A DNA stretch of 35,105 nucleotides from a virus (Duplodnaviria; Caudoviricetes). Positions within the stretch are counted from its first letter, which is position 1. Each line of letters starts with the position of its first letter. Shown here in pieces: positions 6,833-35,105 of the stretch. The stretch is from the IMG/VR virus record IMGVR_UViG_3300033076_000113, positions 1 to 35,105 of that record; one strand, 5' to 3'. The notes under the pieces were generated by a model. The model saw only the letters and a list, made by a program, of their open reading frames with translations, was not told the DNA's origin and did not search any database. Position numbers and translations under genes: made by a program.

Positions 6833-6853
6833 TACACCACTAGGAGCAAACTG

Positions 6854-8395
6854 GTGCAGATTATCGACAACAAAGCCCTCCTCTTGGAGGTGGCTGACCC
6901 CTCTGTGGTTACTGACCACATCCACAATAGCGCCGCAGTTAAGGAAGGCGTGGTTGTCAAATGGGGACACACTGAGACGGAAATCCTAGCCAAGCTGGGG
7001 TTCGAGGCTCCCTCGCCCATGCTCAAGTCCTACGAGTGGACGGGTAAGCTCACGCCCTTTGAACACCAGAAGACCACGGCATCATTCCTCTCGATCCGGC
7101 GCAGGGCTTTCTGCTTCAACGAGCAGGGCACTGGCAAGACGGCCAGCGTCATCTGGGCAGCCGATTACCTCATGAAGCGTGGGCTGGTGAAGCGCGTGCT
7201 GGTGCTGTGCCCCCTGTCGATCATGAAGTCGGCGTGGCAGCAGGACCTGTTTAAGTTCGCCATGCACCGGTCGTGCAGCGTGGCACACGGGACCGCCAAG
7301 CAGCGCGAGAAGATCATCAACGCAGGGGCTGAGTTCGTCATCATCAACTTCGACGGGCTGGCTATCGTGAAGGACCAGATTATCGCTGGTGGGTTCGACC
7401 TGATCGTGATCGACGAGGCCAACGCCTACAAGAACGCGCAGACCAACCGCTGGGGTGTCCTCAACAAGATCGTCAAAGAGACTGACCCGCGTCTGTGGTT
7501 GCTTACTGGTACGCCAGCAGCACAGTCCCCACTGGACGCTTACGGCCTCGCCAAGCTGGCCGACACGCCGAACTGCCCCAAGTACTACGGTCAGTACCGC
7601 GACAAGGTGATGATGAAGGTCACTACGTTTAAGTGGGTGCCCAAGGCCAACGCGCAGGACGTGGTGCATAGCATCCTCCAGCCAGCCATCCGGTTCGAGA
7701 AGAAGGACTGCCTCGACCTACCGGAGGTTACCCATATTGAAAGAGAGGCACCGCTCACGCCGCAGCAGGCTAAGTACTACGCCCAGTTGAAGAGCCAGAT
7801 GCTGATCGAGGCATCGGGCGAAGAGGTCAGCGCGGTCAACGCAGCGACCAAGATCAACAAGCTGCTCCAGATCAGCGGAGGCGCAGTCTACACGGACGAA
7901 GGCTCGGTGCTGGAGTTCGACGTCTCCAACCGCCTGAACGTGGTCATGGAAGTGATCGAGGAAGCCAGCAACAAAGTGCTGGTGTTCGTGCCGTTCACCC
8001 ATACCATCGAGCTTCTGCGGGCCAAACTGGAGAAGGCAGGGATCACCTGCGACGTCATCAACGGTAAGGTGCCAGTTAATCGGCGCTCGGAGATCGTCCA
8101 GCGGTTCCAGACCCACAAGGACCCCCATGTCCTGATTATCCAGCCACAGGCAGCCTCTCACGGCCTTACCCTTACGGCGGCAGACACAATCATCTGGTAC
8201 GCCCCGGTCACCAGCGTGGAGACTTATCTACAGGCAAATGCCCGTATCAACCGCCCGGGCCAGAAGAATGCTATGACCGTGGTCCACATCCGTGGCAGCG
8301 AGGTCGAGGAGCGCCTCTACCGGATGCTGCAAAACAACATTGAGAACCACGAGAAAATTATCGACCTCTACCGTCAAGAACTTGACATTGTATAA
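6854..8395 (+). CDS. SNF2-family helicase
   Basis: EQGTGKT, IDEA, LLTGTP, HGLTLT, QANARINRPGQ motifs; AGGAG RBS. Confidence 0.95.
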   Translation: MQIIDNKALLLEVADPSVVTDHIHNSAAVKEGVVVKWGHTETEILAKLGFEAPSPMLKSYEWTGKLTPFEHQKTTASFLSIRRRAFCFNEQGTGKTASVIWAADYLMKRGLVKRVLVLCPLSIMKSAWQQDLFKFAMHRSCSVAHGTAKQREKIINAGAEFVIINFDGLAIVKDQIIAGGFDLIVIDEANAYKNAQTNRWGVLNKIVKETDPRLWLLTGTPAAQSPLDAYGLAKLADTPNCPKYYGQYRDKVMMKVTTFKWVPKANAQDVVHSILQPAIRFEKKDCLDLPEVTHIEREAPLTPQQAKYYAQLKSQMLIEASGEEVSAVNAATKINKLLQISGGAVYTDEGSVLEFDVSNRLNVVMEVIEEASNKVLVFVPFTHTIELLRAKLEKAGITCDVINGKVPVNRRSEIVQRFQTHKDPHVLIIQPQAASHGLTLTAADTIIWYAPVTSVETYLQANARINRPGQKNAMTVVHIRGSEVEERLYRMLQNNIENHEKIIDLYRQELDIV

Positions 8396-8410
8396 TAGAA
8401 GGAGTAGAGC
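8382..8410 (+). promoter_or_regulatory. putative sigma70-type promoter
   Basis: TTGACA (8382-8387), 17 bp, TAGAGC (8405-8410) in an AT-rich gap upstream of the SSB/primase block. Confidence 0.5.
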
Positions 8411-8431: not shown

Positions 8432-8446
8432 ATGAAGGAGCAACTT

Positions 8447-9796: not shown

Positions 9797-10024
9797 ATGC
9801 GAGGCTACAGCATCCGCGTAGCCGAGGCTATTCAGGGGGCTGATGCCAGTCTCCTCGGGGTGCAACTCGGGCGGGCTTGTCTCGCCCGGGACATCTCCGT
9901 CTCGGAAGCAGCGAAGGGGTTGAACGTCACGCGCCAAACGGTCTACCACTGGTTCCTTGGGCTGAGTGAGCCAAGGGGCAAGGCCCGGGACGCGATCCAG
10001 ACCTACCTAGCCTCGTTCGACTGA
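9797..10024 (+). CDS. XRE/Cro-like HTH protein
   Basis: ISVSEAAKGLNVTRQTVYHWFLG. Confidence 0.85.
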   Translation: MRGYSIRVAEAIQGADASLLGVQLGRACLARDISVSEAAKGLNVTRQTVYHWFLGLSEPRGKARDAIQTYLASFD

Positions 10025-10066
10025 GGCAACCATTAGAGCAAATTAATAGCGGGATTTCCCGCAACG

Positions 10067-12922
10067 GTGAGTGATGCAATGCAACAACCTGATCTCTTGA
10101 CCCTAGTGCAGCCAGCGGAAGGCTGGTTCGCCATCACGGGCATCAAGGGTAAGGGTAAGAACGCTGACGTCCGTCAGGAGCTTGTGGCTACGCGAGAAGA
10201 GGCAGATGCCCTCGTCGAGCAGTTCGTCCAAGCCGGGCGCAATGCGTTCTTTGGGGTGGCTAAGTACAAGACGGGTGACAACCGCAAGAAGGAGAACGTC
10301 CTTGGCCTCAAGGCGTTCTGGCTCGATGTGGACTGCGGCCCGGACAAAGCGGAACCCAACCCCAAGACCGGACGGCCTGACGGCTATGTGGACCAGAAGG
10401 CGGGGCTGGATGCCCTGATGGGCTTCTGCAAAACAATCGGTCTCCCTATCCCTACTCTCGTAAACTCCGGCGGTGGTATCCACGCCTACTGGCCTCTGGA
10501 AGAGACTGTATCCCGGCGCGACTGGGAGCCTGTGGCTGAGCGCTTCAAGGAAGTGTGCCGCACCCAGAACTTCTACGTTGACCCGGCTGTCTTCGAAGTG
10601 GCGCGCATCCTGCGTGTCCCCGGCACGTTCAACTTCAAGGAAGAAGAGCCGCGCCCGGTCGAGTTCATCCATGTGGGCAAGCCTACCACGCTGGAGGCTA
10701 TGCGCGCTGCGCTCGGTGTTAAGAAGCAAGCGTCGATCTTCGACGACGACTTCGAGATGACCCCACGCCAGAAGGCCATGATGAGCGGGGTGGGCTACAA
10801 CTTTAAGAAGATCATGCAGCGCACCGCCAAGGGTGATGGCTGCAACCAGCTTCTACACGCGTACCAGCACCGGGATAGCATCACTTACCACGAATGGTTC
10901 TACGCGCTCTCTGTGGCTGCCATGTGCGAGGACGCCGATAAGGCGGTGCACATGATGTCTGATGGGCATCCGGACTATGACCCGGAGACCGTGGACAAGA
11001 AGGTAGCCACCATCAAGAAGGCGACCAGTTGCGCCAAGTTCCGCAGTGTCAATCCTGACCTGTGCGATGGTTGTCCACATCTGGATAAGATCATGGGACC
11101 CAAGGAACTGGGCAAGGTGGTCAAGGAGTCCAACGAGGACTTTGTAGAGGTTGAGGTCGAGCCGGGTGTGGTCGAGCAGATCGACATCCCTAAGTATCCG
11201 TTCCCGTTCTACCGGGGCGAAGATGGCGGTATCTGGCGCAAACCACCCAAGGACGCGCCTCCTGAAACGGAACCCATGTTCGTCTATCCGTACGACTTCT
11301 ATGTCGTGAAGCGGATGCACGATCCGGGTGAGGGCGACTCGGCGCTAATGAGACTGCACCTACCACAGGATGGGTTGCGTGAGTTCATTGTGCCCATGGC
11401 GAAGGTAACCACGAAGGATGAGCTTCGCAAAATCCTCTCGTCCAACGGGGTCTACTCCTACGGGGCACGGTTCGACGCGCTGATGGACTACGTCCTCAAG
11501 TCAGCAGAGCAGCTACAAGACAGACAGAAAGCAGAGATCATGCGGCAGCAGTTTGGTTGGGTCGATAACAACAGCCGGTTCGTGCTGGGCGACCAAGAGA
11601 TCACCGTCGAGGGGAATGTCTACTCCCCTCCGTCTAAGGCCACTAGCAAGCTGGCCAAGTTCATCGGCCCGGTGGGCACGCTGGAGAACTGGAAGGAAGT
11701 CTGGGCGCTGTTTGGCCAAGAAGGGATGGAAGCACAGGCGTTCGCTGCGCTTAGCGCGTTTGGCTCTCCGCTGCTCAAGTTCCTCAACCAGACCGGGGCC
11801 ATCATCAACCTGTTCAACCCGCGCTCCGGTACGGGTAAGACCACGATCCTCAACATGGTGAACAGTGTCTACGGGCACCCGAAGGAACTGCGCCTCAAGG
11901 AGATCGACACTATGAACGGTCGGCTCCAGTGGGTGGGCATCCTCAATAACCTGCCGCCTACGATGGACGAGCTTACCAACGCCACGCCGAAGGAATATTC
12001 GGACCTGCTCTACATCATGTCCAATGGTAAGGGTAAGGAGCGCATGTTGGCGGGGTCCAACGAACTGCGCGAGAACAACACCACATGGCAGAACATCACG
12101 GTCTCGACATCCAACTCGTCGTTCGCTGAGAAGCTGTCGGTCCTCAAGGATAACCCGGAAGGCGAACTGATGCGCCTGATCGAGTACCCCATCGGGCTGG
12201 TAGACGCGATCAACACGGCGCATGCCAAGAACCTGTTCGATCAGGTGCTGTTCGCTAACTACGGGCACGCTGGACCGGTCTACATCCGCTACCTACTGGC
12301 CAACCTAGAGCAGGTTCAGACCAAGTGCCTCGCCATGCAAGCCAAGATCGACAAGGAGCTTCAGCTTCTTCCCAAGGAGCGGTTCTGGTCAGCCACGTTC
12401 GCTGCCAACATCCAAGGTGGGCTGTTCGCCAAGCGGTGCGGTCTGATCGACTGGGATATGACCCGTATCTATAACTGGTCGTGCAAGCAGATCGAGCGGC
12501 TGCGGGTCGAGACTGAGGCCCCTCTTGACGGACCAGAGCAGGCGGTCGGTGATTACCTCTACCGGCATATGCAGAACATCCTCGTCGTCAACGGTGAGGC
12601 TGACCGGCGCACTAACCTGTACGCAGGGCCGGTGCGCGAACCAAAGGGTGAGTTGCTGGTCCGCATCGAGCCGGACACCAAGATGATGTTCTTCATCGCC
12701 AAGCACTTCAAGGAATACTGCGTTAAGTACCAGATCAACTACAACCAGACCCTCGACAAGCTGGAGCAGCAGGGCCGTCTGGTGAAGAAGGCTGGGAAGC
12801 GCCTGTCCAAGGGTATGGCGGTCTCCGGTGAAAATATCCACTGCCTCTGGTTCAAGCTCTCGGAAGACTTCGTCGGGGTAGACGAGTACGTCCAGCCGGA
12901 CGCCGAGGACGATGCTGATTGA
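10067..12922 (+). CDS. primase-helicase (RepB-like primase plus DUF927-type ATPase); start may be ATG 10079
   Basis: WLDVD, NSGGGIHAYW, RILRVPGTFN primase motifs; Cys cluster; SGTGKTT Walker A, MDE Walker B, GKGKER. Confidence 0.9.
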   Translation: MSDAMQQPDLLTLVQPAEGWFAITGIKGKGKNADVRQELVATREEADALVEQFVQAGRNAFFGVAKYKTGDNRKKENVLGLKAFWLDVDCGPDKAEPNPKTGRPDGYVDQKAGLDALMGFCKTIGLPIPTLVNSGGGIHAYWPLEETVSRRDWEPVAERFKEVCRTQNFYVDPAVFEVARILRVPGTFNFKEEEPRPVEFIHVGKPTTLEAMRAALGVKKQASIFDDDFEMTPRQKAMMSGVGYNFKKIMQRTAKGDGCNQLLHAYQHRDSITYHEWFYALSVAAMCEDADKAVHMMSDGHPDYDPETVDKKVATIKKATSCAKFRSVNPDLCDGCPHLDKIMGPKELGKVVKESNEDFVEVEVEPGVVEQIDIPKYPFPFYRGEDGGIWRKPPKDAPPETEPMFVYPYDFYVVKRMHDPGEGDSALMRLHLPQDGLREFIVPMAKVTTKDELRKILSSNGVYSYGARFDALMDYVLKSAEQLQDRQKAEIMRQQFGWVDNNSRFVLGDQEITVEGNVYSPPSKATSKLAKFIGPVGTLENWKEVWALFGQEGMEAQAFAALSAFGSPLLKFLNQTGAIINLFNPRSGTGKTTILNMVNSVYGHPKELRLKEIDTMNGRLQWVGILNNLPPTMDELTNATPKEYSDLLYIMSNGKGKERMLAGSNELRENNTTWQNITVSTSNSSFAEKLSVLKDNPEGELMRLIEYPIGLVDAINTAHAKNLFDQVLFANYGHAGPVYIRYLLANLEQVQTKCLAMQAKIDKELQLLPKERFWSATFAANIQGGLFAKRCGLIDWDMTRIYNWSCKQIERLRVETEAPLDGPEQAVGDYLYRHMQNILVVNGEADRRTNLYAGPVREPKGELLVRIEPDTKMMFFIAKHFKEYCVKYQINYNQTLDKLEQQGRLVKKAGKRLSKGMAVSGENIHCLWFKLSEDFVGVDEYVQPDAEDDAD

Positions 12923-13106
12923 GGGCGTCACCTATGATGTGGACTGGCCGAGGTTCAAAAAGGGGAGGTCGCTCTTCTTCCCCTGCCTCGATCAGGCACG
13001 CGCCGAGACACAACTAATGGTGGTCCTCAACCGCCTCCGCATCAAGGTCTTGGTCAAGCACGTTATCGAAGACGGGATTAGGGGTTTACGGGTCTGGCGC
13101 ATGTGA
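12912..13106 (+). CDS. hypothetical protein
   Basis: GAGGA RBS; ends GIRGLRVWRM, a frequent ending in small phage DNA-binding proteins. Confidence 0.75.
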   Translation: MLIEGVTYDVDWPRFKKGRSLFFPCLDQARAETQLMVVLNRLRIKVLVKHVIEDGIRGLRVWRM

Positions 13107-13113
13107 GTATACG
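13085..13113 (+). promoter_or_regulatory. putative promoter for junction sRNA
   Basis: TTTACG (13085-13090), 17 bp, TATACG (13108-13113), ending 6 nt before hairpin 1. Confidence 0.55.
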
Positions 13114-13119
13114 GGCGCT

Positions 13120-13195
13120 GGAAGTTTGCTCCTTCCGTCGGGTGCATTGCATCACTCCCGAACCCCCGGCTGCCTCACTCAGCCGGGGGTTTTTT
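13120..13195 (+). ncRNA. candidate three-hairpin trans-acting antisense sRNA
   Basis: Hairpins GGAAG/CTTCC (13120-13136), TCGGG/CCCGA (13138-13161) and terminator; 11-15 nt exact complementarity to helicase and primase start regions. Confidence 0.7.
13161..13195 (+). terminator. intrinsic terminator between convergent modules
   Basis: AACCCCCGGCTG-cctcact-CAGCCGGGGGTT followed by T run. Confidence 0.9.
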
Positions 13196-16100
13196 ATTGC
13201 CCAAGCTCGGCTGCGCGCCGTTCCGCCTCAGACTGACGCACTGGGATTTTCGGATTGTAGCCAAGGCCACCTTCCCGCTGCGCAGCATCCGCGCTCTTAC
13301 TGGCGTAGGACTTCTGCTTGTCTTCCTCAGTGATCTCGTTCGACGGGTAGTTGAGGTTGTAGATTTTGATCGCCCGCTCGGCTTCCTGAAACTCCTTGGC
13401 GGTCTCAGGGGTCGGGTTGAGGTAGTAGGCCCGAGCAGCGCGGTACCGCTGACCCAGCAACTGGGTAGCCTCAGCAGCGATGCCCTTTTCGATGTCAGTG
13501 GCGGCGATGTCCAACTGCATGTTGCGCGAAGTCTCTGCGTCACCAAACCCGAGAGACTGCATCCCCGTCTTGTACAGGGTGTAGTAGCTGGGGTCCTTTA
13601 GCATAACATCACGGTCTGCCCCCACCACGAGACCTTCGTCCCGCAGCCGCTGGGCCTTGATGAAGTTGCGGATCATGGCGGGCATGCCCGTCTCAATGGC
13701 CTTATCAATGTCCCCAGCGTTGAACTGCTTCCACGACTTAAGGAACGAGGCATACATAGAGCCAGTGGCACCAGCACCGGCACGCCCCATGAACTCGAAC
13801 AGCCGCACCTCAGGGTCATCTGACTTAGTAGCAACCGGGTGCCACAGATCGCCCAGTGAGACCGATCCAGACAGGTCTACGTTAAAGAGGCCCGGAAGCC
13901 CGATGTCGGCGGCTGCCTCCAGCTTCTTCGCCGCAGTGTCACCAACACCCAGCATAGAAGCCAGTGTGCCGTTGGGTCCAAACATCTGGGGAATCCATTC
14001 GGTCCGGATGTAGTACTCCATATCCTTCTTGCTCAGTTCGTGCCCCTTTTCGTCGGCGTACTTGAGCATTTCCTTCTGGATGGTCTCGTCGGTCAGGTAG
14101 CCGCCAGCAACTTCCTTGTCCTTGTCCTCATCATCGTCACCCAGACCCTTGACGAACTCCATCAGACCGTAGCCCAGCATGGCGAGGGCATAGAACTGAG
14201 TAGCACGGAAACCGCCGTAGAGCGCGGTCATCGCCCCCACGCCGAAGAACACCTTGGCCGAGGCGACCTTACCTTCCTTGTTGAAGTACGGGAGCATCCC
14301 GTAGAAGCTACGGAACAGCAGCGACGACATGGTGATGCTGTACGAGCGCATCTGAAGTGCCAGCCGCCCGACCGGTGCCTTGGAGTAGCGCGACTTGTTC
14401 CAGTTGGTGAAGTCGAACATCGCCTTCCGGGTGAGCTTGTCTGCCTGTTTCATGGCAGCATCACCAGCAGCAGCCGGGTCCATGCCTCCCTTGAGATTGC
14501 GCTCGTAGGCCAGTTCGAAGGCCGACATATACATGATCTCACGCCCGATACGCTCGGTGCTATGGAAGAGCGCACCCATGGCATTGATGGCGTTCCCAGT
14601 AGCCCTCTGGGCTGCGGTCAGCACTTCCCCACGGCGCAGAGCCTGCACGGCCCCAAAGTCCCCGGTGGGGGTATCAGCACGCTCATAGATGTCTGCCCCC
14701 GCTGAGAACGTGCTCTCGGTGACGTCGTGGTCCTTGGCGTACTCCCATGCCTTCTGCATAGCAGCGTAGCGGTCAGGATCGGTCTCTTGCAGGCCACGGA
14801 TGTACGCGCTGTCTTCCGCCGTGAACTTGGGGAACTCCAGCTTCACATTACCTTCTTCGTCCCGGAACGGGACCGCCATGCGCTTACCGGTCAGCAGTTC
14901 TGCCGTGTAGCGGGTAGCCATGCCGTAGGTGGCCTTCTCACCAAACTCAGCCGACAGGGTGGGCAGACCCACGATGTGAAGCTGGGTAAGGTTCATGGCA
15001 GCCGACTTCACCCCGGACAGGAAGAAGAGGAAGGTGCCCTTGGCATTGACGCTGACGAAGCGGTCAAACCAGCCATTGATGTCTGGCGACATGATCCCTT
15101 CAACGCGCATCTCGATCTCGCGGGTCATCGTATCCAGCCGGGGCTTGGACGGATTACCCGCAGTCTCGGCGTAGGATGCCTCGATGAGGTTCTTCAGCCT
15201 GTAGTTGTACGCAAGCCTGCCAAGCTGGCTGGCAGAGGCTACCGCAGTAGACGCAAAGGTGCGCAGTGCGTCGGTGCTGAAACCAGTCTTGAACTCGCGG
15301 TGGATGAAGCGCCGACGCATGTCTGCCTCAGGCAGCGCCATCAGGTACATCTGGAAGATGTTGTCCTTGAGGACGTCCACATCGGTGACATTGTCCCCCT
15401 CGATCTTGTCGAGGATGTTCCGGAGTGCCACGCTGGCGTCCGCAGCCTTGCTACGCAGTCCGTTGCGCAGGGTGTCCTTACCTTGGCTGAAGTCGATAGC
15501 GCGCGTCTCACCCTCGGCCTTAATCTTCCGGACGAAGTCCTGCTGCTCTCCGAGGCTTTCGAACAGGTGAAACTCGCTGTTCGGACCCTTACCGACGCTA
15601 ACCCAGTATTCACCAAAGCGCTTGAGCGGGAAGTAGATGCTGCGTGCCCGCGCCTTGGCGAACATTTCATCGACCGCCGACTTAAGCTCGACAGCCTTCT
15701 CGTTCTCGAACTGAGATGCGTCGATGCGCTCCATGAGGAGACGGTAGTGCTCCTCGAAGGTATTGCGGTAATGGTCCCGGGCCAGACGGAAGATGCGCTT
15801 GCCAGCGCCGCCACCCATCTTGGCATCCGACAGGTCGTTCCAACCATACACCTTAGCGCCAGTGTCGGGGTCTTCACCACCATAGTAGACGCGCTGGATT
15901 TCCCCACGGCGGCGGCTGATCTGCCCCTTGAGCGCGTTCTTTTTCTTCGGGTCCGTTTCGGCTGCTAGCTTAGTAGCAAGCTCGATCAGCTTGGTATCAA
16001 CCTTGGCGTACTCTGCTGCCGACGCAGCCAGCGTTGGGTCCACATCGTACATGTTGGCGATGTACATTACATCGGCCAGCGCCTGATTGCCCTCCTCAAA

Positions 16101-19100
16101 GCGCGAGGCAAACTCAGTCCACTTCTCGGATACAGACGAAGCAGCCTGCATAAGCCGATTGATGTAGGGGCTGTACTCATCCCGGATCATATCGTCGATC
16201 TTCGAGATGTTCTCCATGCCAGCACGCTCAGCGAGGCGCACCACGTCCTCGGTCATCATCGGACCAAGCAGCTTCTGGAGGAGCGGTGGGGGGACGCTAT
16301 TGAAGAGGCTCGTCAGGAGATTGACGTCGTCGTTCTGACCACGCGCAAGCAGCATCAGCTTACCCGACAGGCTCAGGGCCTCTTCGGCATTACGGCTCTT
16401 AACGATCCGCTGCTGCATGTTGCTGAGCTTCATCCGGCGGATACCGGCGGCTTCTTCCAGTCGCTTGATCTGCCCCTTGGTCAGCTTGGCTGATACAACC
16501 TGATCGACGTTGGCGTCAGTTACCGGCTCCGTGCCACCCTGAGCGCCTGCTCCAGTGTCCCGCCCTGCTCCAGCACTGCCAGTACGTTCGAAAGATGGGC
16601 CGAGTACGGATTCCCCGGTGCTTCCTGCTCCGCTAGGTCCGCGTACGTCGCCAGTTCCGCCGTCGCCTGCTCCTTCGGATGCTTGCTCTGGGCTGCCTTC
16701 TGTAAAACGATTTCCGCGATATTCGACGGTGATGTCGGGGTTTTTGCCATTGAAAAGCTCCACGCCGAGTTGGACAATATCGGCATAATCGTTGGCGACT
16801 GTAGTCGCAAAAGCAGTCTTGAACCAGTCATAGTCGAACTGGTCATCAGCTTCCAAGTTCAACAGGATGTCCTGCATCTCGGCAGGGAAGTTAGCGTTAT
16901 GGCTGCGCACCTTATGGTGAGCAAGCTCGTGAACCATCGTGCCGACGATGCCGTAACCAGCGCGCAGACCATCCCCATACTTGGGGACCAACGGGTTGAT
17001 GAAGCTACCTGAGAACGGCAGCCGGATCGAGACACCACGATACTCAGGGTCAAACGAGACACCAATCGCTTCGTCGCGGAGGCTACCATAACCCATGACG
17101 CGAGCGACTTCGTTGCGCAGCGTGAGGAACGCGTCCCCGTTGTAGCGCATGAAGTCATCAAAGCGCTGCCCGAACCGGCGGCGCATATAGTCCGGGATCG
17201 ACATCTTCTCACCAGTGGCGTTGATGACCACATCGGTGTTGTCGTGGACCATGACCGCATTCGTGTCGATGAGGTCCGGGCTAACCGTAAGGTCGCTGGC
17301 GCTCGGGATACCAGCCTTCAGTTCATCCGGGGTCAGTTCGGGCATTTCCTGCCCGTTGACCAGCAGTTCCCCGTTCTCGCCAACCGTGATCTGGTCGCCC
17401 TCTGCAATGCGCGTGAAGGCCGTGTCCTGCACCGGGATGTCCGGCGTAAGGTCTACCATCGGGCCAAGCTGGCCATCGGGCTGAAAGTACTGGATGCTAC
17501 CGAAGCTCGTCGCTTCTCCAGCCCTACTCTTGTAGGCATAGATAGCGTCAACGTACTTCTTAACCTTACCAAACTCCATCTTGGCGTCGTCGGTAAAGTT
17601 TTGGCGGTTGAAGTTGAACGGGTACCCCGGCTGGTCCGGCTTCACGGACGGCACGATGTCCACATAGAAGGTATAAGGGACCGAAGGCCCCCACATGTCT
17701 GAAGGGTCTTTCTTCACCGCAGTCGAGAACTGCCACAGCCCGTTCGACAGGATGTGCATGTTCTCACCATAGGTCTGCGCGGTCTGGTTGCGAGTGACAT
17801 AGACCTTGGCAGTACCCCATGGGAACTTCACTCCGACAAACTGGGTGTAGTCCTCAACTGGGAAGTTCGAGCCGACCTTAACGTCTTCTGGCCCCATGTA
17901 GCTGCGACCTTGGAAGGTGACAGCGATGTTCGAGAACAGGGGGCTGAGTTCAAGTGACGGGACGCCATCCAGCCAGCGGGGAAGCTCCTTGATTTTGTAG
18001 TCGCCAGCTTCTTCCGGGATCGTCAACTGGATGATGGTGCCATGCCCGTCAGGGAACACCATGAAGTCCGGACCCGCAAAGTCACGGACCTCGATGTCCG
18101 GGGCCTGATTAGGATCGTCGAGTGAAGCGAAAAGCTGCTCGCCTGTCACGTCCATCTCAGCGATGCGCCCATCCCGCGCAGTGGTCACGCGGATGTTCTT
18201 GTTGGCGTAGAGGAACAGCATCTTGGCGATGCCGAAGCCGCCCGCGTTCTTGTCGCCTTCCTTGGCCGTACCAGCGATCTCAAGGAACTTACCGCCCAGC
18301 AGTTCGGGCGTCATACCGATCCCGTTGTCCTTGACCGTCAGCTTGCGGCCATCATCCGAGACGACGATGTCGATCTTACCCTGCTGGACCTGCCCTTCGT
18401 TAACCGCAGTCCGGGTAGCGTCGAACGAGTTCTGGAGGACTTCCTTGATGCAGACCTGACCCATATTGGTCGGGTCACCATAAAGCTGCGGGCCGAGCAT
18501 CTTAGCCATGCGGGTGGCGTTGATCCCCGGCTTGGCGCGGATCGTCTCGTACTCAGGATCGTAGGGCGTTACCTGCTCGACCATGTCCTCCTTTGGCATG
18601 GCATCGACTTCCGCCTGTGCCATGTTGAGGACCTTCTCAGCCGCAGTCTTACCGGGCTTGCGCTTAATGGTCGCCTTGACCGCCTTGGCCTTGGCACCCT
18701 TGGTACCGACCGCCTTGACCTTCTCCGGTGCGCGAGCGGGAGCAGCCTTAGCTGCTGCTTGCGTAGGTGCAGCCTGCGCTTCAGCGACGCGTTCTTGTGC
18801 CCACTGCTGCCCAGCCTTGTAGGCGTCCAGAGCGTCTTGGCCCTGCGCTTCTAGGATTTGCTGGTCGGGGAGCGGCTCACGCCCACGCTGAGTGTCCACT
18901 GCGCCTTCACGGAACATGCCCGGATCAAGGCCACGGTCCTGCGCTTCCGACACGGCGAAGCGGTCGAGGTTCTCCGCAATCTGCTGCGGAGTGTACTGCG
19001 GTTCTGGCGTGATAGAAGGTGCTTGGGTGGCGGGGCGCACCATGCTGCCGTCAGGCTGCTCTTGGAAGCCGAAGCCCTTGTACCATTCGGTCAGTTCGGT

Positions 19101-21146
19101 GGGCGACATCTGCTTGCCCGCTTCAGCCGCAAACGGCTCGGGGCTAAGCTGGATCGTGGTGCCATTATCGTCAGCCGCCTTGGTAAGCTGCTGCATGGCC
19201 TTGCGGCCACCACCCTTCTCGACTGCACGCAGGCTATCAAGCTGAACGATGTCTTCGCCAACAGGGGTAAGCTGGATGCCACCACCTTCGACCAATACCT
19301 CATTGGTGTTCTCGGGATTAACCGTACCGGCACCAGCCAAGTCGTTAAGGGTCTTCTGCGCCGGGGGCGTGACCTTCTCAACCGTAGCCGTCTCAGCCAC
19401 AGTGGGACCTTCGACGACCTGCTGTTCACCATTGACTTCGGTAACCGTGCGGAAGGTACCCGGGGCTTCACCCATGGGCTGTTCGGTCTTGGGCTGCTCG
19501 ACCTTAGGTGCAACAGTCTCACCACGCAGGCGCTGGCCGCGTTCCAGAACGGACCCAATCGCATCGTAGGGATCGACTTCCGGGCTTTGCAGCACGATGC
19601 GCGCAGCCTGCTTCTTCTGCTCGGCGTTGAGCTTCTTGACGCCATAGCTGTCTTCGAAGTCGATCTGGTTGTCCGCGAACGTCTGCTCGATGGTCGGGAT
19701 GGTAGCCTTGACCTGCGCGCCCGTGATCTTGGGTAGCTCAAGCGGAGGCGCGGTCGGAGCCGGAGTTAGTGCAGGCTCTCCCGCTCGCGGGCCAACATCA
19801 GGAACTGATACGCTAGGAACAGGTTCTCCCAGTCCTCCAGTGACAGCTTCTCCAATGTCGGGGATACCGGCTCCGGTCGGTGCGGCTCCGAGATCAGGAG
19901 CAACGCCTGCTCCAACTCCTCCGCTGACATCCACAGTGGTACCAGTAACGGGTTCTGCATTTGCTCCTCCCTCTCCCCTAGCCACCATGTTGGCTGCGGC
20001 TTTGGTGAGCAGTTCTTCCGCCCGCTCCGAAACTGCCTCGACAGCAGTCTTCTGGTCCATACCCGGGTTAGCAGCCATGACGGCGGCAACCTCTTGGGCT
20101 GCCAGCCGCTGAAACTCCTGCTTGATCTCCGGAGCGACCGGAACACCCTCACTGGTAACGTCCCCCTTGCGGCGGAACGGCGCGGCGACAGCCTCGGTAG
20201 CACCCGTAAACACCGTACCACCAAGGGCACCAGCCAGACCGGCTTCGAGCGTTTCAAGCATGGCCTTCTTGGTGAGAGGGTCCGTGCCGCCAGCGACCTG
20301 CTCAATTACGTTCTGGAGCATTTCGGTCCCGGCTTCCTCGCCGCCCGATTTAGCAACCCGGATCGCTGCCTGCTTCAATCCAGCCTCAAGCAGTTCCTTA
20401 GCAGCAATAGCTGCGGTACCGCTCAAAATCTTCCCACCAACACCGGTTAGTACATCAAGCGCAGAGGACGCGGCAGTACCGAAAACTGCCCTGTCTATGT
20501 TGCGAATGCCTTCGGCCTGTTGGCGCTCACGGATACCGCCGTAGGTCATCGGGACATTGCCCGCACCCATAACGAGACCGGCAGCCATAGGGCTACGAGT
20601 GAGAAGCCCAGTGGCTACACCCGCACCAACAGGGAGCGCGCTCTCCGCCACTGTTTCGGCCAAAGAACCTAGGCTGCGCCCAAAACCCTGCTCTTCAAAA
20701 AAGCCACCATATTTACGTGGGCCAATTTCAGCCAACTGCTTTTCAGCCGCTGCGCGCTCAGAGGCGACCATTTCGCCGGTGAGGCCCTTGTAGGTTTCCG
20801 ATTGGGCAGCAGCCGCGCCAAGACCCTTTGCCAATGGCGCAAGATAATTTGTGCCCGGTAGCGACGAGAAGAGAGACGCCGCGACTTCCGGAGCGTCTTC
20901 AACGATCTGCGCTAGCCCCTTACGGAGATTCGGTACACCGCGCTCTACCGCGCGCCCCAATGCCGAGAAGACACCTTCGTCTTCCGGAGCAGCAGAGGTC
21001 GGGGCCGGTGCAGGAACCGCTGGGGTTTGGACCGGGGCAGCCTGTGCATGGGTCATATTAGCCCATTGCCACGCCGTGTTTGCGTCAGGGGCCGTGACGA
21101 TATATTCTGCGTCTCCGACTTTTACCCTGTACTTGGCGTCAGGCAT
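13194..21146 (-). CDS. giant polyvalent internal virion protein with GNAT-like, GHKL ATPase and HEXXH zincin-like regions
   Basis: 2650 aa; EKGGGRKAM...LTEWYKGFGF; KEVLQNSFDA, VKDNGIGM, GGFGIAK; MVHELAHHKVRSH; helical C-terminal half; last gene of the virion operon. Confidence 0.88.
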   Translation of the reverse strand: MPDAKYRVKVGDAEYIVTAPDANTAWQWANMTHAQAAPVQTPAVPAPAPTSAAPEDEGVFSALGRAVERGVPNLRKGLAQIVEDAPEVAASLFSSLPGTNYLAPLAKGLGAAAAQSETYKGLTGEMVASERAAAEKQLAEIGPRKYGGFFEEQGFGRSLGSLAETVAESALPVGAGVATGLLTRSPMAAGLVMGAGNVPMTYGGIRERQQAEGIRNIDRAVFGTAASSALDVLTGVGGKILSGTAAIAAKELLEAGLKQAAIRVAKSGGEEAGTEMLQNVIEQVAGGTDPLTKKAMLETLEAGLAGALGGTVFTGATEAVAAPFRRKGDVTSEGVPVAPEIKQEFQRLAAQEVAAVMAANPGMDQKTAVEAVSERAEELLTKAAANMVARGEGGANAEPVTGTTVDVSGGVGAGVAPDLGAAPTGAGIPDIGEAVTGGLGEPVPSVSVPDVGPRAGEPALTPAPTAPPLELPKITGAQVKATIPTIEQTFADNQIDFEDSYGVKKLNAEQKKQAARIVLQSPEVDPYDAIGSVLERGQRLRGETVAPKVEQPKTEQPMGEAPGTFRTVTEVNGEQQVVEGPTVAETATVEKVTPPAQKTLNDLAGAGTVNPENTNEVLVEGGGIQLTPVGEDIVQLDSLRAVEKGGGRKAMQQLTKAADDNGTTIQLSPEPFAAEAGKQMSPTELTEWYKGFGFQEQPDGSMVRPATQAPSITPEPQYTPQQIAENLDRFAVSEAQDRGLDPGMFREGAVDTQRGREPLPDQQILEAQGQDALDAYKAGQQWAQERVAEAQAAPTQAAAKAAPARAPEKVKAVGTKGAKAKAVKATIKRKPGKTAAEKVLNMAQAEVDAMPKEDMVEQVTPYDPEYETIRAKPGINATRMAKMLGPQLYGDPTNMGQVCIKEVLQNSFDATRTAVNEGQVQQGKIDIVVSDDGRKLTVKDNGIGMTPELLGGKFLEIAGTAKEGDKNAGGFGIAKMLFLYANKNIRVTTARDGRIAEMDVTGEQLFASLDDPNQAPDIEVRDFAGPDFMVFPDGHGTIIQLTIPEEAGDYKIKELPRWLDGVPSLELSPLFSNIAVTFQGRSYMGPEDVKVGSNFPVEDYTQFVGVKFPWGTAKVYVTRNQTAQTYGENMHILSNGLWQFSTAVKKDPSDMWGPSVPYTFYVDIVPSVKPDQPGYPFNFNRQNFTDDAKMEFGKVKKYVDAIYAYKSRAGEATSFGSIQYFQPDGQLGPMVDLTPDIPVQDTAFTRIAEGDQITVGENGELLVNGQEMPELTPDELKAGIPSASDLTVSPDLIDTNAVMVHDNTDVVINATGEKMSIPDYMRRRFGQRFDDFMRYNGDAFLTLRNEVARVMGYGSLRDEAIGVSFDPEYRGVSIRLPFSGSFINPLVPKYGDGLRAGYGIVGTMVHELAHHKVRSHNANFPAEMQDILLNLEADDQFDYDWFKTAFATTVANDYADIVQLGVELFNGKNPDITVEYRGNRFTEGSPEQASEGAGDGGTGDVRGPSGAGSTGESVLGPSFERTGSAGAGRDTGAGAQGGTEPVTDANVDQVVSAKLTKGQIKRLEEAAGIRRMKLSNMQQRIVKSRNAEEALSLSGKLMLLARGQNDDVNLLTSLFNSVPPPLLQKLLGPMMTEDVVRLAERAGMENISKIDDMIRDEYSPYINRLMQAASSVSEKWTEFASRFEEGNQALADVMYIANMYDVDPTLAASAAEYAKVDTKLIELATKLAAETDPKKKNALKGQISRRRGEIQRVYYGGEDPDTGAKVYGWNDLSDAKMGGGAGKRIFRLARDHYRNTFEEHYRLLMERIDASQFENEKAVELKSAVDEMFAKARARSIYFPLKRFGEYWVSVGKGPNSEFHLFESLGEQQDFVRKIKAEGETRAIDFSQGKDTLRNGLRSKAADASVALRNILDKIEGDNVTDVDVLKDNIFQMYLMALPEADMRRRFIHREFKTGFSTDALRTFASTAVASASQLGRLAYNYRLKNLIEASYAETAGNPSKPRLDTMTREIEMRVEGIMSPDINGWFDRFVSVNAKGTFLFFLSGVKSAAMNLTQLHIVGLPTLSAEFGEKATYGMATRYTAELLTGKRMAVPFRDEEGNVKLEFPKFTAEDSAYIRGLQETDPDRYAAMQKAWEYAKDHDVTESTFSAGADIYERADTPTGDFGAVQALRRGEVLTAAQRATGNAINAMGALFHSTERIGREIMYMSAFELAYERNLKGGMDPAAAGDAAMKQADKLTRKAMFDFTNWNKSRYSKAPVGRLALQMRSYSITMSSLLFRSFYGMLPYFNKEGKVASAKVFFGVGAMTALYGGFRATQFYALAMLGYGLMEFVKGLGDDDEDKDKEVAGGYLTDETIQKEMLKYADEKGHELSKKDMEYYIRTEWIPQMFGPNGTLASMLGVGDTAAKKLEAAADIGLPGLFNVDLSGSVSLGDLWHPVATKSDDPEVRLFEFMGRAGAGATGSMYASFLKSWKQFNAGDIDKAIETGMPAMIRNFIKAQRLRDEGLVVGADRDVMLKDPSYYTLYKTGMQSLGFGDAETSRNMQLDIAATDIEKGIAAEATQLLGQRYRAARAYYLNPTPETAKEFQEAERAIKIYNLNYPSNEITEEDKQKSYASKSADAAQREGGLGYNPKIPVRQSEAERRAAELGQ
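16520..16750 (-). CDS. candidate overprinted 76-aa ORF nested in giant gene
   Basis: GGAG 7 nt before ATG; helical-looking product; host frame is a G/A/T linker with atypical GGA/GCA/ACT codons. Confidence 0.5.
   Translation of the reverse strand: MAKTPTSPSNIAEIVLQKAAQSKHPKEQATAELATYADLAEQEAPGNPYSAHLSNVLAVLEQGGTLEQALRVARSR
19766..19960 (-). CDS. candidate overprinted 64-aa ORF nested in giant gene
   Basis: GGGAGGAGCAA-ATG strong RBS; amphipathic acidic product; host frame is a low-complexity linker with A/T-ending codons. Confidence 0.65.
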   Translation of the reverse strand: MQNPLLVPLWMSAEELEQALLLISEPHRPEPVSPTLEKLSLEDWENLFLAYQFLMLARERESLH

Positions 21147-30404: not shown

Positions 30405-31304
30405 TTACGTCGGTATCTGGACCCAAACGACGGTGTTCCCATCGTTGACCAAAGTCCAGTTGTCGGTCTGCGAGTCGTCAACGGGCACCCAGTTAGGTGT
30501 CTGATTATCGTTGATGATCCCCCACACCAACGGTGTCGTGATCCTGCCAACAGCTTGTACACCAGTGAGAACCACAATGGAACCACCTGCTGTAGTAGCA
30601 GTACCAACCGCACCCGAGGCTTCTACGCCAGTGACACGAATGCGGTTGCCGCTTCGCTGAGTGACGGTGCCAAGCTGCGCTTGAGCTTCAATTCCGGTGA
30701 CAACGACGCTGGCGATACCGGTAATAGCCACCGTGCCGACCGCACCAAGAGCCTCTACGCCATCTTCGATGACGACGGCTCCACCATCTGCGACGGCGTC
30801 ACCAACAGCGCCTGTGGCTTCTACACCCGAAACTGCCGCATTGGCGTTGGCTTGTGCGACCGCAGTACCGACTGTGGCAGTCGCCTGCACCCCGGTTAGG
30901 GTGAGGTTGCCTGTACCTTGAACGCTGGCGGTCCCGATGGACCCAACCATCAGCGTCTCAAAGACGTCAATAGAAATGCTGCCACCCGCAGCTACGCCGA
31001 CGCCATCATTGATGGCCTGCGCACTGACGCCCGTGAGGGTTACATTAGCTTTGTCTTGGACATCTACCGCGCCGACCGACCCGGAGGCAGAGACTCCGGT
31101 GACCGCTACGTTTTGGCCGACAGCGGTGGTAACGGTGCCGACAGAGCCAGTCGCGCTGACTCCTGTGGGGGTTACGTTCGCGTTGGATTGTACCGTTACG
31201 CTACCGACAGAGGCAGTCGCTGAGACTCCCGTAACGGCTGCTTCTACCGAAACAGTCCCGAGCGCGGCAAACGGAGTCTGGGCGAAGGAGGAAAAACCAA
31301 ACAT
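30405..31304 (-). CDS. repetitive structural protein
   Basis: GGAGGG RBS; many V/LTGVxAxGxVGT repeats; WxxV repeats at C-terminus. Confidence 0.75.
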   Translation of the reverse strand: MFGFSSFAQTPFAALGTVSVEAAVTGVSATASVGSVTVQSNANVTPTGVSATGSVGTVTTAVGQNVAVTGVSASGSVGAVDVQDKANVTLTGVSAQAINDGVGVAAGGSISIDVFETLMVGSIGTASVQGTGNLTLTGVQATATVGTAVAQANANAAVSGVEATGAVGDAVADGGAVVIEDGVEALGAVGTVAITGIASVVVTGIEAQAQLGTVTQRSGNRIRVTGVEASGAVGTATTAGGSIVVLTGVQAVGRITTPLVWGIINDNQTPNWVPVDDSQTDNWTLVNDGNTVVWVQIPT

Positions 31305-34519: not shown

Positions 34520-35105
34520 CAGCGTTCTCTTCCCACGCAGCGGTGGCCTCAGCACCGATCTTGCCCATGTAGGGGCACGGGGTGCCTGCCATCTCCATCG
34601 AGCGGAAGACGCGGTCGTCTTGGCACAGGAGGCTAACTGCGGCTACGCGCATGCCCATGTCGTACAGGGTCTTCGACAGTTTGATGCGTTCACAATTCTG
34701 GTCGCGTACAGCCTTACCACCAGAGATGCCAACAATCTGCGTCTGGACCGCGCCTGATACGCCAGTCGTGCAGAGGTCTTGGCTGTAGCTCATGATCGTC
34801 GGCGCGATGGCCGAGGGCGGGGGCGACTTGAGGTTCTGGTCAATCACCTGCCGAGAGACGTTCTCGCTGTAGCTGGTGGACTTGCTATCGCTCAGGTTGA
34901 CGTTGTTGTTCTGGTTGACGTTGGTGTTGTTCGTCGTCGCCACCGAGGTGCTGTTCACCGTCGAGGTAGAGACGTCCGTATTGAAGTTGTTGTTCGTGGC
35001 GGTGCTGGTGCTCGTCGCCGTCGAAGTGTTCTGGTTGATGTTGGTCATCGTCCCAGAGTTGATGTTCTGGTTGACGTTGGTGTTCGTCGAGGTGCTCGTC
35101 GAGGT
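34488..35105 (-). CDS. N/T/S-repeat, Cys-containing protein (start beyond window)
   Basis: Frame open to window end; NTNVNQN repeats; PPPSAIAP..DLC..NCERIKLSK..LLCQD..GTPCP domain. Confidence 0.8.
   Translation of the reverse strand, partial: TSTSTSTNTNVNQNINSGTMTNINQNTSTATSTSTATNNNFNTDVSTSTVNSTSVATTNNTNVNQNNNVNLSDSKSTSYSENVSRQVIDQNLKSPPPSAIAPTIMSYSQDLCTTGVSGAVQTQIVGISGGKAVRDQNCERIKLSKTLYDMGMRVAAVSLLCQDDRVFRSMEMAGTPCPYMGKIGAEATAAWEENADARPDAKRSR
34907..35084. repeat. 22-bp direct repeat within coding repeats
   Basis: TGTTCTGGTTGACGTTGGTGTT at 34907-34928 and 35063-35084. Confidence 0.7.

Follow-up and report, generated by a model that had tools for sequence, protein, structure and literature searches.

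The window, by which we mean the whole stretch of 35,105 nucleotides of record IMGVR_UViG_3300033076_000113, belongs to an uncultured phage and is 56% complete. Its genes are arranged in two arms that meet at 13107-13193. The plus strand encodes DNA polymerase A, an exonuclease, an SNF2 helicase, a Gam-like protein, an SSB-like protein (a label assigned from its size and acidic tail), an HTH protein, a DUF927 primase-helicase and a 64-aa protein, and the minus strand carries the virion and lysis genes. Gene starts were taken from a rough custom gene caller. The 64-aa protein had no Pfam or PHROG match, and its gene was conserved even at loci without the small-RNA element described below. Convergent with the early arm lies a gene (13194-21146, minus strand) for a 2650-aa DarB-like/large polyvalent protein with an embedded HATPase domain, whose content and size vary among relatives. 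Degenerate direct repeats with 78-nt and 66-nt spacing, found within the late genes at 34889-35105 and 31063-31232, are probably protein repeats. The features on which the analysis turns are as follows.

6842-6852, plus strand: RBS of the SNF2 helicase gene, predicted target of seed 1 (11-nt exact complement)
8382-8410, plus strand: predicted promoter-like motif TTGACA-N17-TAGAGC, ahead of the Gam-like-to-primase block
8434-8443, plus strand: RBS of the Gam-like gene (likely start ATG 8447), predicted target of seed 1 (10-nt exact complement)
10036-10042, plus strand: GAGCAAA in the leader of the primase gene, a complement of the hairpin 1 loop and a candidate auxiliary site with a putative role
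10049-10062, plus strand: small GC hairpin directly upstream of the primase RBS
10069-10083, plus strand: predicted target of seed 2, comprising an SD-like sequence, a spacer and the AUG (10079) of the primase-helicase
10079-12922, plus strand: primase-helicase gene, with a DUF927 domain and an N-terminal polymerase/primase-like part (PF06048, phrog_8841, phrog_2478)
12912-13106, plus strand: 64-aa gene, its 3' end containing the predicted -35
13085-13113, plus strand: predicted sigma70-type promoter TTTACG-N17-TATACG, the -35 lying within the last codons of the 64-aa gene
13120-13197, plus strand: predicted small RNA of about 78 nt with predicted ends, made up of hairpin 1, a variable middle and a terminator
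13120-13136, plus strand: hairpin 1, GGAAG-TTTGCTC-CTTCC (AGUUUGCUCCUUC), carrying seed 1 (13123-13135), which is antisense to the early-gene RBS tag
13143-13157, plus strand: seed 2, mid-element, antisense to the primase-helicase RBS and start (exact 15-nt complement)
13160-13197, plus strand: intrinsic terminator, a terminator-scan match, ending plus strand transcripts where the gene arms converge

The element at 13120-13197 is a real, conserved feature. It was found downstream of the 64-aa gene at about 122 of 128 distinct related loci, these being the distinct loci at which sufficient sequence follows the 64-aa gene, and such counts lean to close relatives and to the hairpin 17-mer, as the scan loci were chosen by that 17-mer and the protein searches gave the best 80 hits. 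A strict terminator test was passed by 119 of the 128; L191, L249, L252 and L293 were added by eye, the pass of L287 looks false, and the element was absent at L005, L007, L008, L208 and L291 as well as at L287. Scanning with the 17-mer yielded 119 stretches, about 30 of which, as judged among the matches listed, lay in unrelated contexts without a 64-aa gene and were left out; scans anchored on proteins gave more loci. The length of the element varies among loci through indels, and its conserved core is hairpin 1, whose 5-bp stem occurs in five different Watson-Crick versions around a loop that is about 90% unpaired. The region 13105-13200 folds with a z of -3.2. At L054 and L070 TTTGCTCC occurs a second time, within or close to the terminator hairpin. 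Besides, L264, L266, L275 and L187 carry a short element 3' of the 64-aa gene that has the promoter motif and terminator and no anti-RBS seed; it matched nothing (0 of the 17 early-gene starts of G011), the early genes there are untagged, and it is possibly a degenerate form.

Cultured relatives are distant, with primase identities of at most 29%. Pseudomonas phage Rollin was rejected as a cultured test system as it has no intergenic gap at the convergence point, and so was Rhizobium phage RHph_TM29 (MN988463.1), in which the GGTAAC present at some starts is half of a dispersed DNA palindrome found on both strands. The latter phage (L333-L335) has dozens of such GTTACC-N6-GGTAAC-type palindromes, some over gene starts, which are probably a DNA-binding site, and its primase-helicase homolog is annotated as 'putative integrase'.

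The layout of the element would fit a transcription unit of its own. The predicted -35 TTTACG was present at 93 of 119 loci, and the codon beneath it was Leu TTA in 63 of 73 representatives, compared with 5.7% in primase genes. The -10 position had TA in 76/79 (best of three spacings) and hairpin 1 began 6-7 nt past it in 57/79. The last T of the -10 was absent in 62 of 79, as it likewise is from most alphaproteobacterial sigma70 promoters according to PMC8407463. A consensus promoter scan of the window did not pick up the predicted promoter at 13085. At the other end, the terminator stems (n=77) contained 33 internal G-U pairs against 1 A-C, with a mean of 6.7 T in the next 8 nt, and this asymmetry together with the T tract sets the RNA strand as plus. 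In metatranscriptome X6 (share 0.09), contigs of relatives included one of 70 nt at 13120-13190 and none extending beyond 13190, but run X2, which is probably DNA, also has a contig ending at 13191, so such contigs are no firm sign of expression.

Seed 1, formed by the loop and 3' arm of hairpin 1, is complementary to AAGGAGCAAAC, the RBS of the Gam-like gene, and part of it is plain anti-SD. It is the main seed, and not the mid-element segment singled out by the sequence-only reading of this DNA. The tag that it matches is an SD-plus-spacer sequence (AGGAGCAAAC) found on about 9-11 early genes per genome, including those of the helicase and the Gam-like protein here. Its distribution is biased to early genes, as GGAGCAA occurred at 31 of 138 early-strand starts and at 1 of 90 late-strand starts pooled over the near-complete relatives G001-G003 (Fisher p 6e-7), the separate counts being 11/43, 9/36 and 11/59 for early starts and 0/33, 0/34 and 1/23 for late ones. 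When scored with the whole element, the early-versus-late enrichment was not significant in G003 or in the partial genomes, and in the window alone, which comes from a 56% complete record, 3 of 22 early starts match the element (p 0.22). Two complete genomes without the element held AGGAGCAA 0 and 1 times.

Comparison of each locus with its own element, under a lenient element definition that takes in 127 of the 128 loci including some without the element, gave matches of at least 8 nt at 105/120 Gam-like, 58/98 helicase and 26/122 primase starts. The corresponding counts were 1/88 for the exonuclease, 10/121 for the SSB-like gene, 6/118 for the HTH gene, 0/13 for the polymerase and 3/127 for the 64-aa gene, and seven genes besides Gam-like and helicase showed no own-genome match excess. 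The terminator loop was tried as a third seed (for the SSB-like start, and for the HTH gene with an 11-nt match at 9960) and rejected, as these starts gave no own-genome excess and the loop varies freely.

Seed 1 and its targets covary. Variant seeds with matching variant RBSs were found at L189 (11 nt), L203/L206 (11), L204 (9), L286 (12) and L290 (12), and further at the L292 helicase (11 nt), L293 (12), L165/L247 (12) and L140/L277 (12); these co-variants fall on separate branches of a FastTree tree of the primase segment. The element-target match at L191 and L199 was weak, at only about 6 nt. In G007 the AGAGGTA complement is part of the element, 8 of the 12 AGAGGTA sites on the early strand lie before a start, and AGGAGCAA precedes a start once, a pattern that we read as the whole tagged class having moved to AGAGGTA jointly with the seed. 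At L047, L063 and L072 the helicase and SSB-like starts share a different tag (GGA-ATA-C-CC type), unmatched by seed 1, hinting at a second regulator.

As seeds and tags diversify by lineage and the predicted promoter resembles a host sigma70 promoter, the element might instead be an immunity RNA that silences a phage residing in the cell without integration or excludes related superinfecting phages, with the tag switches marking immunity types. RNA-based exclusion has a precedent in STnc6030 (in the portion of PMC12197685 used). Such a role appears unlikely, because a search of 4 records, 3 of which are at least 90% complete, found no tyrosine integrase, and because one tag is common to phages whose primases are only 45-50% identical, a poor fit to immunity-type diversification.

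The arrangement of the targets bears on a second alternative. A transcript running from the promoter-like motif at 8382 to the terminator at 13160 would contain the Gam-like and primase starts as well as the element, so that the element could be the 3' end of a Gam-like-to-64-aa mRNA and fold back in cis onto its own RBSs. A motif resembling TTGACA-N17-TAGAGC was also present at the equivalent place in G001 and G002. We consider cis pairing quite unlikely, since the tagged starts span more than 20 kb behind several promoter-like motifs, a single 3' copy pairs with one site at once, and a -35 and -10 of the element's own are under constraint. As a separate observation, TTGACA in these early promoter-like motifs (window 8382-8400; G001, G002) precedes a stretch that is rich in A+T and in part palindromic, and that could be an operator for the HTH protein (9797-10024).

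Alternatively, the tag could be a protein-binding site (an operator or translational repressor site), with the copy in 13120-13157 serving as a DNA site or as a sense decoy on a late minus strand transcript. The minus strand does read like an RBS here, just beyond the end of a late gene, and part of the 15-mer is palindromic. But the G-U asymmetry, the U-tail and the promoter all indicate the plus strand, the copy is in every case antisense to the tags and placed in a loop whose stem varies, and seed 2 tracks a different site, all of which make a protein site very unlikely.

The sequence-only reading had centred on seed 2, and it gave the right sequence and coordinates, since the reverse complement of 13143-13157 is identical to 10069-10083. 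The true start of the primase is probably ATG 10079, as judged from a database protein of 947 aa and from the GTG being out of frame with the ATG in the L029 group; with this start, the 15 matched nt take in the AUG, the spacer before it and some of the SD-like GGTGAG. Seed 2 and its target are both on the plus strand, 3074 nt apart, so a plus strand RNA from 13143 would pair with the primase mRNA. The duplex of seed 2 with the primase start was predicted at -24.9 kcal/mol, compared with -16.4 and -15.1 for the seed 1 targets. The proposed 'hairpin 2' folds only weakly in the window, and relatives have a different 5' arm.

The rarity once claimed for this match, 1 in 10^9, is misleading. The window holds 3 maximal inverted matches of at least 15 nt (17, 15 and 15), Markov simulations of order 1, 3 and 5 gave on average 1.5, 1.8 and 2.2, and 80-90% of the 40 simulated windows per order had at least one. 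A count of inverted matches in the window, which had been proposed as the background check, thus finds the length ordinary; what is unusual is the position at a start. When 2271 random 78-nt phage stretches were compared with 36 start regions, a 15-nt match arose 0 times and a 12-nt match 9 times, and none of the 2271 had three matches of at least 10 nt; the element scores 15, 11, 10 and 9, for the primase, the helicase, the Gam-like gene and the site at 309 respectively. The last of these, a 9-nt match at 309-317 that had been taken to cover a further gene start, does pair with 13149-13157 and was rejected as a target, as it is not kept in G001, where the only homolog was found.

Among relatives, the middle segment matched the locus's own primase start over 7-17 nt at 16 distinct loci with primase identity of at least 69%, reaching at least 8 nt in 14 of the 16. 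The full 15 nt were not kept in four relatives (9, 8, 9 and 9 nt), five others had 13-17 nt, and the seed 2 match was 8-9 nt in five close loci. Paired changes in seed 2 and primase occurred in L132/L048 (two positions), the L068 group, L047 and the L017 group, and in L083 and L217 the pairing changes only to G-U. The primase was the best start-region match of the middle segment in 10 of 11 representatives with at least 69% identity, being tied in L217. Over 37 loci with at least 54% identity, the own-primase match averaged 7.65 nt against 5.41 when shuffled (p 5e-5, in a permutation that ignores kinship). At all 17 loci with 59-67% primase identity the middle-segment match was only 3-7 nt and the pairing missing, and 42 distant representatives had no own-primase excess (5.90 vs 5.82 nt, p 0.30). 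From this loss and the lack of a distant excess, seed 2 is, as far as sequences can tell, a clade-restricted addition that would extend control to the untagged primase-helicase; the idea that the middle segment serves distant phages generally as a second seed found no support, given the lack of own-genome excess in the same 42 representatives.

The check for compensatory changes proposed along with the match thus had a divided outcome, with four paired variants in the close clade and complementarity missing at 59-67% identity. Control of the primase start by antisense pairing in trans likewise held up in part, the compensatory changes in one clade speaking for it as a secondary activity; the rarity argument made for the match fails. 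The primase match might also, even with a working seed 1, be a currently functionless extension of an anti-SD segment, arisen by chance or left as a relic, since 15-nt inverted matches are expected in a window of this size and seed 2 is lost in several related lineages. We regard this as extremely unlikely in view of the four paired variants, the 13-17 nt retained in several relatives and the rank of the primase as best middle-segment target in the close representatives. Apart from seed 2, GAGCAAA was present in the primase leader of 9/17 close loci and 0/101 distant loci. The hairpin at 10049-10062 keeps its stem with loop and pairs changing in about 20 of 24 representatives with at least 55% identity (by eye), and could be a processing or standby element.

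Taken together, 13120-13197 is likely to be a small RNA gene whose predicted trans pairing with the RBSs of the phage's own early and replication genes would block their translation. The RNA would arise either by transcription starting at the promoter within the 64-aa gene or by processing of the replication mRNA at its 3' end. Pairing may begin between the open loop of hairpin 1 and the spacer, upon which the 5-bp stem would open and the SD would be covered, and seed 2 would cover the primase SD and AUG. Pairing across the SD and the start codon usually represses. Ribosomes would be excluded from the paired starts, and as the RNA accumulates, delayed negative feedback could cap or shut off early-protein synthesis. 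Such feedback is the most likely of its possible roles, because no other gene follows the RNA gene in the early arm and replication would raise the copy number of the RNA gene. We hold at even odds the wider reading that a widespread, apparently lytic phage family carries a class tag in its early RBSs, that one modular guide RNA turns the whole class off, that tag and guide are rewritten together, and that a swappable second seed recruits the primase-helicase.

Known phage antisense RNAs mostly tune a single gene of a temperate switch. The candidate RNA appears to reach all the genes of one temporal class by way of a tag in their RBS spacers, and natural compensatory variants already reveal its pairing rules. 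If true, this would be an RNA-only route by which small phages without known regulators stop early-protein synthesis, a sequence signature for early genes in uncultured phages and a compact, retargetable repressor of 60-90 nt.

The papers searched contained no description of such a phage RNA, and Rfam gave no match in the element region at E<=5, its one weak hit in the window lying elsewhere and being unrelated. The covariance models of c4 antisense RNA (RF01695) and of the alphaproteobacterial anti-SD sRNA families gave no match to the element. The c4 RNA of P1/P7 and the CI RNA of satellite phage P4 are structured phage RNAs whose short exposed segments pair with non-overlapping sites on their own mRNA; they arise by processing from the operon under their control, and their action is on a single immunity operon in temperate phages. 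The element resembles them as a phage-encoded, structured RNA with short segments and own-mRNA targets, as predicted here, and differs in its position at the convergence of gene arms, its own predicted promoter and terminator, and its matches to a class of about ten genes. Its neighbours are the primase-helicase, the 64-aa gene and the convergent 2650-aa gene, and not the c4-icd-ant operon context. RF01695 is the c4 antisense RNA listing in the part of PMC2864571 used. Motifs of the element had no match in part of the supplements of PMC10690425, and the structure may sit among the 10,006 unannotated candidates of that source.

Early genes as a class are also controlled in T4, where, in the part of PMC3014915 drawn on, RegB cleaves GGAG/U within the translation initiation regions of early mRNAs and leaves late ones intact, and RegA competes with ribosomes at about 30 mRNAs. 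These are alike in purpose, and both are proteins, whereas a base-pairing RNA seed is proposed here. A likeness to plasmid copy-number antisense RNAs, a kind that includes CopA and RNA I, had been suggested; it gives way to that of a multi-target sRNA, hairpin 1 targeting a tag on about 9-11 early genes per genome. The plasmid RNAs lie opposite a single target, to which they have long perfect complementarity. According to PMC12197685, the same holds for phage OOP, sar and aQ. The element shares with these plasmid and phage RNAs antisense control, here of a replication gene start by seed 2, and is unlike them in that seed 2 lies on the same strand and 3 kb from its target and in that seeds are 8-17 nt long. 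Cis-encoded antisense RNAs lie on the opposite strand with full complementarity, in place of the 15 nt on the same strand at 3074 nt found here.

PreS of lambda acts on host dnaN and VpdS of VP882 on Hfq networks, both trans-acting phage sRNAs like the one proposed here and both affecting lytic growth, and the part of PMC12197685 that we draw on describes for them no common RBS tag on own genes such as is seen here. The element shares with trans-acting sRNAs in general an exposed seed that complements translation initiation regions and is conserved along with these. Multi-target bacterial sRNAs with anti-Shine-Dalgarno seeds are known as the AbcR, cuckoo/CcsR and MmgR types. The element shares with AbcR/CcsR/MmgR types, as predicted, a short RNA, a CU-rich hairpin seed, an intrinsic terminator and many RBS targets, and is unlike them in being phage-encoded, in having same-genome targets that coevolve with the seed, and in drawing its specificity from the SD-to-start spacer.
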